Positions 25,470 to 29,100 of a DNA stretch of 33,153 bases are shown here, one piece after another. The stretch is from Candidatus Rokuibacteriota bacterium (GTDB lineage Bacteria > Methylomirabilota > Methylomirabilia > Rokubacteriales > JACPHL01): NCBI GenBank assembly GCA_016188625.1, contig JACPHL010000115.1, positions 1 to 33,153 of the forward strand. The letters are read 5' to 3'. A program made the translations under genes and the position numbers. Below the pieces are notes generated by a model, which made no database searches, was not told the origin of the DNA, and saw only the letters and a program-made list of their open reading frames with translations. Numbering within the stretch: position 1 is the stretch's first letter; every line of letters begins with the position of its first letter.

Positions 25470-25586
25470 ATGCCTAAGCGCACGGACTTACGCAAGATCC
25501 TCATCATCGGCTCAGGGCCCATTGTGATCGGGCAGGCGTGCGAGTTCGACTACTCGGGGACCCGGGCGTACACGGCCGGCAAATGA
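25470..25586 (+). pseudogene. carB 5' fragment (38 codons: 31 identical residues, 5 diverged codons, then unrelated GK and a stop)
   Basis: [31 protein letters not shown] is identical in protein to the carB N-terminus at 26155, then reads RAYTAGK*. Its TGA overlaps the ATG of the next ORF (ATGA). Confidence 0.85.
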
Positions 25587-25903
25587 CCCTGGAACAGCAG
25601 ATCGAGTGCATCGTCAGGCAGATCGTTGAGGGGTACCGACCTCTGAAGGTTATCCTCTTCGGCTCGCACGCCTACGGCGAACCCACAGAGGACAGCGACC
25701 TTGATCTTTTGATCGTGAAGGAGACGTCCGAGCGGTTCATCGACCGGTGGGTTGCGGTCCAGGAGTTGATCGCGGATCCCGAACGGCGGATCCCCGTGGA
25801 GTCGATCGTGGTGACTCCTGGCGAGCTGCAGCGGCATCTGACCCGCGGGGATCAGTTTTTCCAGGAGATCGTCGCCCGCGGGAAGCTCCTCTATGCCGCG
25901 TGA
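25583..25903 (+). CDS. Minimal nucleotidyltransferase (MNT / antitoxin-type NTase domain protein)
   Basis: 106 aa. [21 protein letters not shown] matches the GSxxxG...DxD polymerase-beta-like NTase signature. Size and C-terminal helices fit MNT proteins of HEPN/MNT modules. Confidence 0.8.
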
Positions 25904-25943
25904 GGAATCCCGCTATCCCGGGGATTGGCTGAGGAGGAGGTGA
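25893..25943 (+). pseudogene. Possible vestige of a HEPN partner gene (16 codons)
   Basis: ATG 25893 overlaps the NTase stop, as in MNT-HEPN pairs. [16 protein letters not shown] resembles the WL..AE.DL N-terminal helix of HEPN-domain partners and then stops. Confidence 0.25.
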
Positions 25944-25950
25944 TCACCTC

Positions 25951-26154
25951 GTGATCAGAGACGGCCACGACTTCCTGGAATGGCTCCACCGGATCAGGGA
26001 GGAGCACGCGCGCGAGCGTGAAAAGATGACGGACAAGGAGGTGATCGCGCAGATTCAAGCGGAGGCCAAGGGACTGCTGGACGAGGCAGGGTACACGCTC
26101 AAGCCCGCCCCGGATGGTCCGGGCAATCGGATCGTCAAGCGGGGGGAGGCCTGA
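25951..26154 (+). CDS. Hypothetical 67-aa protein
   Basis: GTG 25951 lies 7 nt after a perfect GGAGGTGA ribosome-binding site. MIRDGHDFLEWLHRIREEHAREREKMTDKEVIAQIQAEAKGLLDEAGYTLKP.. Its TGA directly abuts the carB GTG. Confidence 0.5.
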   Translation: MIRDGHDFLEWLHRIREEHAREREKMTDKEVIAQIQAEAKGLLDEAGYTLKPAPDGPGNRIVKRGEA

Positions 26155-29100
26155 GTGCCTAAACGGACGGATCTGCGGAAGATCCTGATCATCGGCTCCG
26201 GGCCGATCGTGATCGGGCAGGCGTGCGAGTTCGACTACTCGGGGACCCAGGCGTGCAAGGCCCTCCGCGAGGAGGGTTACCAGGTCGTCCTGGTGAACTC
26301 GAACCCCGCCACGATCATGACCGACCCCGAGATGGCCGACCGGACCTACCTCGAGCCGCTGACCCCTGACATGGTCACGAAGGTCATCGCCCGCGAGCGC
26401 CCCGAGGCCCTGCTCCCCACGCTCGGCGGCCAGACCGGCCTGAACCTCGCCGTGGCCCTCGCCGAGGCGGGGGTCCTCGACCGCTACGGGGTCGAGCTGA
26501 TCGGGGCCACCCTCGAGGCGATCCGGAAGGCCGAGGACCGCGAGCGCTTCAAGACGGCGATGGAGCGGATCGGCCTCGCCCTCCCCCGCTCCGGCTACGT
26601 CAGCTCGATCGAGGAGGCGCGCGAGATCGTCCAGCGCCTGGGCTACCCGGTCATCATCCGCCCCTCCTTCACCCTCGGCGGCACCGGCGGGTCCATCGCC
26701 TACAACCCCGAGGAGCTGGACGAGTGCGTCCGCTGGGGGCTCCAGCAGAGCCCGGTGGGGCGGGTCCTGGTGGAGGAGTCGGTCATCGGCTGGAAGGAGT
26801 TCGAGCTGGAGGTGATGCGGGACCTGGCCGACAACGTGGTGGTCGTCTGCTCCATCGAGAACTTCGATCCGATGGGGATCCACACCGGCGACTCGGTCAC
26901 CGTGGCCCCGGCCCAGACCCTCACCGACAAGGAGTACCAGCTCATGCGCGACGCCGCGGCCGCGATCATCCGCGAGATCGGCGTCGAGACCGGCGGCTCC
27001 AACAGCCAGTTCGCGGTGAACCCGCGCGACGGCCGCCTGGTCGTCATCGAGATGAACCCGCGGGTCAGCCGCTCCTCGGCCCTGGCCTCCAAGGCCACCG
27101 GCTTCCCCATCGCCAAGATCGCGGCGAAGCTCGCGGTCGGCTACACCATGGACGAGCTCCGGAACGACATCACCCGCGAGACCCCGGCCTCCTTCGAGCC
27201 GACCATCGACTACGTGGTCGTCAAGGTGCCGCGCTGGGCCTTCGAGAAGTTCCCCGAGGCCGACCCGCGCCTGGGCACCCAGATGAAGTCGGTCGGCGAG
27301 GTGATGGCCATCGGGCGGACCTTCAAGGAGGCGCTCCAGAAGGCCCTCCGCTCGCTCGAGCAGGAGTGGTGGGGGCTCGCCCTGGACCCACCGGTCGCCG
27401 ACCTGGAGGCGATCCGCGACCGGCTCCGGGTCCCCACCGCCGAGCGGCTGCCGTGGCTTGCCGAGGCCCTCCGCCGCGGCCTCGCCCTCGAGGAGATCCA
27501 CGCCCTGACCCGGATCGACCCCTGGTTCCTCGGCCAGATCGCCGAGCTGGTCGCCTTCGAGGAGGCCTTCCGCGCCCAGCCCGACCTCTCGGCCGCGACC
27601 CTCCGCCGCGCCAAGCGGCTGGGGTTCGCCGACCACGAGCTGGCCCGGCTGGCCGGCCGGACCGAGGCGGAGATCCGCGCGGCCCGGCTTGCCCACGGGA
27701 TCCGGGCGACCTACAAGATGGTGGACACCTGCGCCGCCGAGTTCGAGGCCTACACCCCCTACCTCTACGGGACCTACGAGGAGGAGGACGAGGCGTCCCC
27801 GACCGAGCGCCCCAAGGTCGTCATCCTCGGCTCGGGGCCGAACCGGATCGGCCAGGGGATCGAGTTCGACTACGCCTGCGTCCACGCCGCCTTCGCCCTC
27901 CGGGAGCTCGGGGTCGAGGCGATCATGGTCAACTGCAACCCCGAGACCGTCTCCACCGACTACGACACCTCGGACCGCCTCTACTTCGAGCCGCTCACCC
28001 TGGAGGACGTGCTGAACATCGTGGAGAAGGAGCGGCCCCTCGGGGTCATCGTCCAGTTCGGGGGGCAGACCCCCCTCAAGCTCGCGGTCCCCCTCGAGCG
28101 CGCCGGGGTCCGGATCCTCGGGACCCCGCCCGACGCCATCGACCGGGCCGAGGACCGCCCGCTCCCTCGACGAGGCCGCCGGGGTCGCCGCCCGGATCGG
28201 CTACCCGATCCTCGTCCGCCCCTCCTACGTCCTGGGCGGCCGGGCGATGGAGATCATCTACGAGGAGGAGCGGCTCCGGGGCTGGATGGCCGAGGCGGCG
28301 CGGGTCTCGCCCGAGCACCCGGTCCTCATCGACAAGTTCCTCGAGAATGCCATCGAGATCGACGTGGATGCGCTCGCGGACGGGGAGGACGTGGTCATCG
28401 GCGGGGTCATGGAGCACATCGAGAAGGCGGGGATCCACTCGGGCGATTCCGCCTGCGCCCTGCCCCCCTACTCCCTCACCGACGAGCAGGTGGTCGAGCT
28501 GAAGGCGGCCACGGTCGCCCTGGCGCGGGAGCTCGGCGTCGTCGGGCTCCTCAACGTCCAGTTCGCCATCCGGAACGAGACCGTCTACGTCCTCGAGGTC
28601 AACCCCCGGGCCTCCCGGACGGTCCCGTTCGTCTCCAAGGCGATCGGGCTGCCGCTGGCCAAGCTCGCCACCCAGGTGATGCTCGGCCGGCGCCTGGCCG
28701 GCCTCGTCCCCGGCCCCCTGGCGGAGCCGGGCCACATCGCGGTGAAGGAGGCCGTCTTCCCCTTCGCCAAGTTCCCGGGGGTGGACGCGGTGCTCGGGCC
28801 GGAGATGAAGTCCACGGGCGAGGTCATGGGGATCGACCGCGACTTCCGGCGGGCCTACGTGAAGTCCCAGCTCGCCGCCGGCTCGCCCCTCCCGACCCGG
28901 GGCAAGGTCTTCCTCTCGGTGAGGAACCGGGACAAGCGGTCCGTGGTCACCCTCGCCCGCCGCCTCGCCGCGCTCGGGTTCGACCTCGTCGCCACCCAGG
29001 GGACCGCCAAGGTCCTGGCCCTCCACGGGATGCGGGTCGAGGTCATCCACAAGGTGGCCGAGGGGTGGCGGCCGAACATCGTGGACCTCATGAAGCGGGG

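Follow-up and report, generated by a model that had tools for sequence, protein, structure and literature searches.

Gene order and features of the carA-carB junction

The window analysed here is the complete 33,153-nt contig JACPHL010000115.1 of a Candidatus Rokubacteria metagenome-assembled genome (MAG), whose pyrimidine operon runs pyrR-pyrB-pyrC-carA-orfX-...-carB-pyrF-pyrE. The subject of this study is a 685-nt insert between orfX and carB, made up of a gene for a minimal nucleotidyltransferase (MNT), a HEPN toxin remnant fused to the 3' end of a PIN-domain gene, and a small open reading frame (ORF), orfY. The insert is bracketed by two copies of the carB 5' end, the left one a truncated stub (carB') and the right one the start of carB itself. 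The features are listed in their order along the window with the basis of each assignment (contigs used for comparison carry L numbers).

24062-25186, + strand: carA, carbamoyl-phosphate synthase small subunit, the upstream core gene of the pyr operon (Pfam CPSase_sm_chain 8e-56, GATase 5e-56)
25191-25460, + strand: orfX, a native ORF of 89 amino acids (aa), left border of the hot spot described below (homologues between carA and carB in L005 and L009)
25461-25469 (9 nt), + strand: native orfX-carB spacer CGGCGTCCC (identical in the empty site of L100 and also in L118, L127 and L129)
25470-25586, + strand: carB' stub, interpreted as the displaced resident 5' end, with 36 homologous codons, then GK and a stop (Pfam CPSase_L_D1 2e-11)
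25524-25563, + strand: invariant 40-mer, left copy (right copy 26209-26248)
25583-25903, + strand: MNT-type minimal nucleotidyltransferase of 106 aa, the antitoxin of a HEPN-MNT pair and now an orphan (Pfam Polbeta 9e-09, NTP_transf_2 1e-08)
25893-25943, + strand: HEPN toxin remnant of 16 codons plus stop, the first ~13-14 codons HEPN-derived (aligns with the HEPN start of L118, L127 and L097 to ~25935)
25931-25936, no strand: deletion junction joining HEPN codon ~14 to the end of PIN at a microhomology of 3-5 nt (GGA / AGGA; BLAST end-points)
25934-25954, + strand: 3' end of a PIN-domain (VapC-like) toxin gene, the last 6 codons plus stop, EEVITS-stop (same sequence as the end of PIN in L003, L004 and L097)
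25951-26154, + strand: orfY, 67 aa, downstream partner of PIN and putative antitoxin (the exact protein lies between PIN and carB in L003 and L004)
26155-29302, + strand: carB, the first ~24 nt cargo-linked and the rest the resident allele, with a 59-nt deletion at ~28151

The genes are packed closely, the stub stop codon TGA overlapping the MNT start as ATGA and the orfY stop abutting the carB start as TGAGTG. Across 25500-26150 the GC content drops from ~72% to ~61%, and GC at third codon positions was 0.81-0.82 in the cargo genes compared to 0.97-0.99 in carA, orfX and carB.

Two alleles of the carB 5' end

A repeat search identified a direct repeat of 107 nt with 88% identity (25471-25577 and 26156-26262) at a spacing of 685 nt, which was recovered by self-BLAST of the window with E = 3e-32. 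Codon-by-codon comparison of the copies (25470-25577 against carB 26155-26262) gave 11 differences over nt 1-54, one being the start codon (ATG against GTG) and ten being synonymous, so that both copies encode the same 18 residues. The next 40 nt were identical (25524-25563 and 26209-26248). Beyond this block there were three non-synonymous differences (R/Q, Y/C, T/K), homology stopped after codon 36 (GCC), and the left ORF met its stop codon at 25584-25586, two codons past the end of homology. The functional carB start is the GTG at 26155, immediately after the orfY stop (26152-26154). A first-pass annotation made from the sequence had described the bracketing duplicate, the 11 differences of no consequence for the protein, and the identical block followed by three replacements and a stop in the left copy; all of this was borne out by the three analyses.

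We compared the window with related contigs that are 93-99.5% identical to it in orfX and carA, plus more distant relatives. L100, which has 98.1% nucleotide identity to the window over 7,078 nt and 99.0% within carB, carries orfX, the 9-nt spacer CGGCGTCCC and one intact carB of 1068 aa, and is thus an empty site. In L005 and L009, the nearest species representatives (Rokuibacteriota; 70-72% CarA identity), the order was carA-orfX-carB with nothing inserted. The empty site expected by the first-pass annotation was therefore found in a contig of the same species as well as in distant ones. An ancient native duplication, under which relatives free of cargo would keep both carB 5' copies, is ruled out by the single carB copy in L100, L005 and L009.

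An allele table of 17 aligned carB 5' copies was used to trace the two ends. Nucleotides 1-30 of the stub, together with the spacer upstream, were identical to L100, nt 31-54 matched the allele found at intact carB in L109, L127 and L003, and the three non-synonymous changes past the 40-mer were private to stubs. The right copy was identical to L100 from nt 25 on, with nt 1-24 representing an allele that was linked to orfY in every contig (as in L004), and the allele of the window switches near nt 25-33. The match of the stub and spacer to L100 on one side and of the right copy from nt 25 on the other indicates that the left stub is the displaced resident carB 5' end, partly converted and starting to decay. 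By the same alleles, the first ~24-30 nt of the right copy came in with the cargo as a replacement start. The first-pass annotation had been unable to say which arm was native, a point that these alleles settle. It had proposed that the incoming DNA supplies a new 5' end and had assigned the two ends to different functional carB lineages; the alleles of both copies do recur at intact carB in other contigs.

The 40-mer itself was found by exact search in 35 loci of JGI metagenomes from diverse lineages, most of them in carB genes 66-83% identical to that of the window (many 66-77% overall) and in quite different contexts. The earlier view of the identical 40 nt as a crossover or conversion tract is ruled out, since the block is invariant in the carB of distant lineages and the window switches allele near nt 25-33. 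The 40-mer is fixed by amino-acid conservation and GC-rich codon choice, and it is long enough for homologous pairing between lineages. In what is a biased sample, nucleotide conservation of carB was 79-93% at nt 31-105 and fell to 65-71% over nt 106-135, a stretch that contains several stub ends; the coincidence of the dip with the stub ends is suggestive only.

Cargo of the insert

The MNT protein matched NCBIfam MntA_antitoxin at 4e-07, under the family cut-off, and the GSX10DXD motif is readable in its translation. A search for the exact 106-aa protein gave no record, and the homology search identified it as the NCBI entry of the window itself. An intact HEPN partner (129 aa; Pfam HEPN 1e-22) directly follows MNT in L118, L127 and L097, while the window has no intact HEPN toxin gene and retains 16 codons. 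As in HEPN-MNT (type VII) toxin-antitoxin (TA) modules, the 106-aa protein is a minimal nucleotidyltransferase with this motif and overlaps a downstream HEPN gene in the relatives; unlike them, the HEPN of the window is cut to ~14 codons and the antitoxin half alone is left. The PIN family comprised 610 homologues, many of them named PIN or VapC, with a weak Pfam PIN match (E = 0.002). The orfY family is tiny (8 clusters), and all recovered contexts were at the carB locus. PDB and PADLOC searches with the PIN-like protein and orfY gave nothing useful.

According to the BLAST end-points, the window matches L118 up to 25935 and L003, L004 and L097 from 25933, and the parental sequences at this HEPN'/PIN' junction share only GGA/AGGA (3-5 nt). 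This pattern marks the cargo of the window as a deletion derivative of a stub-MNT-HEPN-stub-PIN-orfY-carB array, which had been overlooked by the first-pass annotation. Compared to an L097-type array ~0.97 kb is missing, namely the bulk of both HEPN and PIN together with the carB stub between them. A single microhomology deletion took out both toxins and the internal stub, with MNT and orfY, the presumed antitoxins, staying behind, and the window is a clear example of TA erosion. Similar microhomology deletions were seen in L139 (at TAC) and L131.

Occupants of the junction in related contigs

The single cassette orfX-stub-MNT-HEPN-carB was intact in five assemblies from at least four samples (L118, L127, L128 (= L109), L129 and L130). 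A two-cassette array with three carB 5' copies, stub-MNT-HEPN-stub-PIN-orfY-carB, was present in L097. L004 runs from a HEPN end into stub-PIN-orfY-carB, and L003 starts within a stub and continues into PIN-orfY-carB. The reverse cassette order was found in L131-L138, as orfX-PIN-orfY-(11-nt carB remnant)-MNT-HEPN-stub. L139 reads orfX-MNT'-stub-PIN-orfY-carB, L143 reads orfX-PIN-orfY-carB with no stub, and L140 has EamA-PIN, the first four PIN codons being the MPKR of carB.

Other cargo was also found. In L001 (99.5% identical to the window in carA and orfX), a gene of low GC content for an N6_N4 DNA methyltransferase and one for an MTaX1-domain protein (446-2119) occupy an insert that begins 3 nt after the orfX stop, with no stub visible before the contig ends. 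L101 and L087 hold a composite of gene fragments and a PBECR2-like/DUF2283 pair, which closes with a stop codon overlapping the carB ATG, and L110 has the same composite followed by stub-PIN. The largest cargo, ~3.5 kb, was found in L144 (6672-10400), which reads orfX-decayed stub-PIN-orfY-stub (26 codons)-SNF2 helicase (705 aa)-373-aa gene-carB; the helicase and the 373-aa protein may form a defence system. The junction between the 26-codon stub and the SNF2 cargo was common to three contigs, L144 and the tails of L131 and L140. In L141 (1-1529), PIN-orfY and a 14-codon carB stub are fused to a second EamA 3' end, with a 60-aa ORF and a truncated HicA toxin gene coming next. A diverged copy of the EamA transporter gene's 3' end lies on either side of the PIN-orfY cassette and stub of L141, and partial duplication therefore also hits the upstream flanking gene.

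The cassettes are co-oriented, compact and stacked at one chromosomal point, and their content differs between strains. In many cases, though not in all, a carB stub stands between neighbouring cargo units. Across the compared contigs, the carA-orfX-carB junction is a strain-variable hot spot for small TA and defence cassettes within the pyrimidine operon. Differences in cassettes from strain to strain explain why contigs break at this locus, and short carB-like ORFs beside carB in MAGs need not be annotation noise.

The stubs of the related contigs ended at codons 4, 14, 26, 36 (twice), 41 and ~46. The PIN cassette alone occurred with three stub ends and in a stub-less form; the MNT cassette had one constant left junction, GCC/GGYAAATGA (the slash marking the join), in at least five contexts. 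Distal stubs were decayed, the first stub of L097 (L097_1) lacking a start codon and the first stub of L144 and the internal stub of L131 being partly deleted. A four-gamete test on 15 copies found all four gametes in 18 of the 105 informative site pairs within 94 nt, and the copies therefore recombine. In L118 the allele switch lies at nt 34-44.

MNT-HEPN paralogues with 79-84% aa identity lie tightly between guaA and dnaE in other Rokubacteria (L120-L126; e.g., L126, 5001-5679), with stops and starts overlapping and no room for a stub. The stub is therefore not a general property of the MNT-HEPN cassette, an option that these paralogues rule out. TA pairs in housekeeping operons seem common in the phylum.

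Proposed mechanism and expression

The compared sequences establish insertion with replacement of a 5' end, variable junctions, mosaic alleles and repeated microhomology deletions at this junction. As the best explanation we favour, with a probability of about two in three (0.68), homology-anchored recombination, both illegitimate and homologous, in which the carB 5' end is displaced at a cassette hot spot. In the proposed scheme, donor DNA would enter from a relative that already bears a cassette upstream of carB, and the highly conserved carB 5' region would serve as the homologous anchor for pairing. An illegitimate join would attach the non-homologous cassette end either inside the resident carB, among its first ~46 codons, leaving a stub, or in the orfX-carB spacer, leaving none. 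This would be a form of homology-facilitated illegitimate recombination (HFIR), here termed "5' displacement", in which the incoming carB start preserves the essential gene and the resident start stays as a stub. The stub and carB flanks could then allow homologous recombination to move, stack, reorder, convert and excise cassettes, a linear fragment from a stub to the next carB copy acting as an 'ends-in' substrate and a popped-out circle as a Campbell substrate. Microhomology deletions would later erode the cassettes, and a dedicated recombinase would not be needed.

The traces that such a scheme should leave were found. An anchor segment is common to resident and incoming DNA (carB nt 31-105, with the exact 40-mer in distant lineages), displaced fragments are kept as repeated partial copies of which the older ones are decaying (three copies in L097; decay in L097_1, L144 and L131), and the junctions are variable and the alleles mosaic, as seen from the stub ends and the four-gamete test. 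The capture of foreign DNA by homology, which the first-pass annotation had offered as its alternative, thus fits better than the attachment-site (att) reading that it had put forward; its replacement 5' end and empty site stand, and its att footprint and 40-nt crossover tract do not.

Expression of the cargo may follow from its packing. In the recovered contigs with cargo directly after a stub, the reading frame of the stub closes on the first cassette gene's start codon or shortly past it, with overlaps of ATGA (MNT), ATGGCAGTAA and TTGA (PIN) and of ~32 nt in L139. At the other end, three TA pairs lie directly before a carB copy with their last stop abutting or overlapping the carB start, as TGAGTG (orfY), TAGGYATG (HEPN) and TAATG (DUF2283). 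No promoter or terminator consensus and no Rfam match were found in the cassette region. These overlaps, together with the lack of promoter-like or terminator-like sites, suggest read-through with translational coupling, which would limit polarity on carB.

Several points weigh against this reading. The comparison contigs are mostly short metagenome assemblies from mixed strains, and the recombination mechanism is deduced from end-products alone. HFIR usually deletes recipient DNA and does not leave a duplicated stub; the stub would need a heteroduplex starting downstream of the illegitimate join, which is plausible. All stub ends lie within codons 4-46, which could reflect a site preference, some cassette boundaries have no stub, and the SNF2 cargo is ~300 nt away from carB. 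So far, the HEPN'/PIN' junction has been seen in the window only. A conserved 4-nt overlap with PIN suggests orfY as a putative antitoxin, and cargo expression and carB re-initiation by operon read-through and translational coupling are probable only. Finally, the contig covers 33 kb, and a recombinase elsewhere in the genome might act in trans.

A broader version of displacement at carB, which we regard as a tentative possibility, is an integrase-free analogue of integrons. The near-invariant carB 5' end would be a universal homologous attachment site, the mobile unit would consist of the stub 3' part, the cassette and the carB start, and host homologous recombination would by itself be enough for such units to enter, pile up, change order and leave in diverged Rokubacteria lineages. 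Transcription of the pyr operon, with translational coupling via the stub ORF, would carry the cassettes, and the stubs would be functional both as recombination sites and as translation leaders.

Alternative explanations

The alternative that survives best is a sub-variant of the preferred explanation that differs only in the topology of the incoming DNA, namely Campbell-type integration of non-replicating circles by host RecA through a single crossover in the carB 5' block, which would duplicate the block. The circles, each of a cassette and a carB 5' end, would form from a fragment or pop out of an array when two of its stubs recombine. A single crossover fits L118, in which the stub is native to nt 44 and then donor and the right copy is donor to nt 33 and then native, and it fits the window too. 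The constant left junction of the MNT cassette in at least five contexts is also as expected of a circle, and the perfect block, at 40 nt, is longer than the ~25 nt that RecA needs as a minimal processing segment. The several left junctions of the PIN cassette, however, would require several independent circle formations, a stub of 4-14 codons would not suffice for RecA unless it had once been longer, and a circular form was not observed. We consider circles an improbable route on balance.

Site-specific integration, in which the carB 5' end is the attB of a small integrative element or of cassettes mobilised in trans, a carB-like sequence is the attP, and the window is a decayed attL-cargo-attR, is less probable still. 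It corresponds to the attL/attR footprint of the first-pass annotation and has real attractions, in that the ORF is restored by a duplicated gene end that has diverged synonymously, relatives have an empty site, the same cassette occurs in different backgrounds, the cassettes stack in one orientation by carB as integron cassettes do by attI, and the prophage e14 is likewise flanked by icd and an icdC fragment (PMC13626634). Against it, and as that annotation had stated for the window, no recombinase was found with Pfam in the insert or the ~25 ORFs of the window, where the matched ORFs were all housekeeping and three had no family match. The window likewise gave no transposase. No recombinase stood out in the related contigs either, but their annotation was incomplete: Pfam scans covered some of the cassette proteins, and precomputed Pfam hits came from loci retrieved by protein look-up, with many genes left unannotated. 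No intI was found in the 33-kb window or among the Pfam-annotated genes of L143 and L144 (contigs of 15-17 kb), and no suitable attC-like inverted repeat was found in 24000-27500; the cassettes end 0-4 nt from the carB start (in the window and in TA cassettes preceding carB), leaving no room for attC.

The boundaries argue in the same direction. Instead of a fixed crossover core with identical boundaries, stub ends range from codon 4 to ~46, the PIN cassette has three of them plus its stub-less form, and the switch points differ between the window (nt 25-33) and L118 (nt 34-44); the 40-mer 'core' is merely invariant in high-GC carB. No viral or plasmid carrier was found either. The 40-mer was absent from the viral contigs searched, and BLASTN of the insert against plasmids and phages matched the stub only (carB on chromids). 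The sole phage match, 'Pseudomonas phage Y6' (L142, GenBank OQ572408.1, UNVERIFIED), was rejected as a carrier, being ordinary Pseudomonas carA-(LysE-like)-carB-greA DNA; the segment probably stems from the host or from faulty packaging or assembly, rather than representing a phage att site.

The weakest alternative, that co-assembled strains with different carB alleles gave a chimeric contig, draws on the many co-existing variants of the locus in the samples, on a JGI contig (L002) that breaks exactly at the end of orfX and on the odd 59-nt deletion in carB and the HEPN'/PIN' junction unique to the window, and is very unlikely because both outer junctions recur in independent JGI, ENA MEGAHIT and Logan assemblies of different samples (the left in L118, L127, L128 (= L109), L129 and L130, the right in L003, L004 and L097), single short contigs span stub-cassette-carB (L004, of 1,040 nt, L128 and L129), the HEPN'/PIN' parents share 3-5 nt, far under any assembler k-mer, and the stub allele switches near nt 30 with no long shared k-mer.

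Relation to known systems

The carB locus shares the logic of displacement arrays and of core-gene hot spots, and it lacks the features that define integrase-based systems. HFIR-like displacement has been proposed for effector-immunity arrays of the type VI secretion system (T6SS) in Vibrio cholerae (Kirchberger et al., 2017; PMC5361080) and likewise for Rhs orphan arrays, as that paper relates in citing Jackson et al. (2009). In Rhs/contact-dependent inhibition (CDI) and T6SS arrays, as at carB, a conserved segment anchors the incoming DNA and the other end is presumably joined illegitimately, the displaced fragment is kept, partial copies are repeated, protective genes are orphaned, the result is mosaic and no integrase is known. 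In those arrays, however, the conserved upstream or 5' portion of a toxin gene serves as anchor, and toxin 3' tips are displaced along with their immunity genes. At carB this role falls to the 5' end of an essential housekeeping gene that lies downstream of the cargo, what is displaced is a 5' stub, and the cargo bears no relation to the anchor gene.

Homologous recombination in the flanking core genes has been proposed as the route by which TA islets without mobile elements spread (PMC13617665), and PMC10250203 describes core-gene defence hot spots without mobile-element hallmarks. Such hot spots resemble the carB locus in having variable TA, restriction-modification and helicase systems between two core genes, in lacking integrase or transposase hallmarks and in having homologous recombination proposed at their flanks. 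They differ in arising by clean double crossovers in both flanks that leave no scar, whereas at carB one flank is repeatedly duplicated as stubs in the operon.

Among integrase-based elements, e14 is bounded by icd and an icdC fragment (PMC13626634, which cites Hill et al., 1989, and Campbell et al., 1992, for this). In e14 and phage 21 at icd, a partial duplicate of a core-gene end similarly brackets foreign DNA, the foreign copy differs mainly synonymously and keeps the gene functional, and excision yields chimeric alleles. But e14, a prophage of 15 kb, encodes an integrase of its own and has a defined att core at the icd 3' end, compared to cargo of 0.6-3.5 kb without a recombinase, with variable junctions and at a gene 5' end in carB. 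Integrons share the compact, mostly promoter-less and co-oriented cassettes by a fixed point, the frequent TA cargo and the strain-variable order. Unlike integrons, the carB locus has neither intI nor attC hairpins, its separator is a coding fragment of the neighbouring essential gene, and expression apparently proceeds by operon read-through and translational coupling in place of a Pc promoter.

A literature search found no description of arrays separated by 5' stubs of an essential gene, and a search on Rokubacteria and toxin-antitoxin found nothing relevant. If 5' displacement is correct, a conserved stretch of an essential gene acts as a recombinase-free landing pad at which TA and defence cassettes move between diverged lineages and pile up, and each insertion leaves a dated scar in the form of a stub, from which the order of events would be readable in the sequence. 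It would further offer a concrete mechanism for many defence and TA hot spots without mobile-element hallmarks and extend the displacement model of Rhs and T6SS toxin loci to a housekeeping operon.

Other observations on the contig

The orfX family consists of proteins of 88-89 aa with the pattern MP[RK]Y[FL]ISYRK... that lie between carA and carB in Rokubacteria (the window; L005, ~2975-3243; L009, 7136-7402). The orfX stop lies 3 nt before the carB ATG in L005 and L009, and L001 and L002 also encode the exact orfX protein of the window. Searches of orfX against Pfam and NCBIfam gave no family.

Within carB (28140-28160), the window lacks 59 nt of L100 at ~28151, the gap being flanked by a 7-nt direct repeat (GGACCGC). 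This deletion shifts the carB frame, and the C-terminal part continues in an ORF at 28247-29302. The deletion is either genuine, marking a pseudogene or minority variant, or the product of an assembly error, and because of it the contig may stand for a defective or minority form.

A structured intergenic repeat of ~105 nt, resembling repetitive extragenic palindromic (REP) sequences or miniature inverted-repeat transposable elements (MITEs), occurs at 2779-2887, 9243-9348, 16639-16761 and 31212-31241. The copies at 9244 and 16657 are 98% identical, and the element ends in a G/C hairpin, GGAAGGGGGGC..GCCCCCCTCCGAG. Sequence related to this REP-like repeat lies directly upstream of carB in L104 and L144.

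A second 5'-end duplication on the contig affects an archease-like gene, the 5' end of which (VAQADPGSAGFEYFEVTADV) is present in tandem at 14997-15064 and 15078-15145 (68 nt, 98.5%, in frame). The copies are 13 nt apart (CCTCCGAGGGATC), and CCTCCGAG in the spacer corresponds to the end of the REP-like element.

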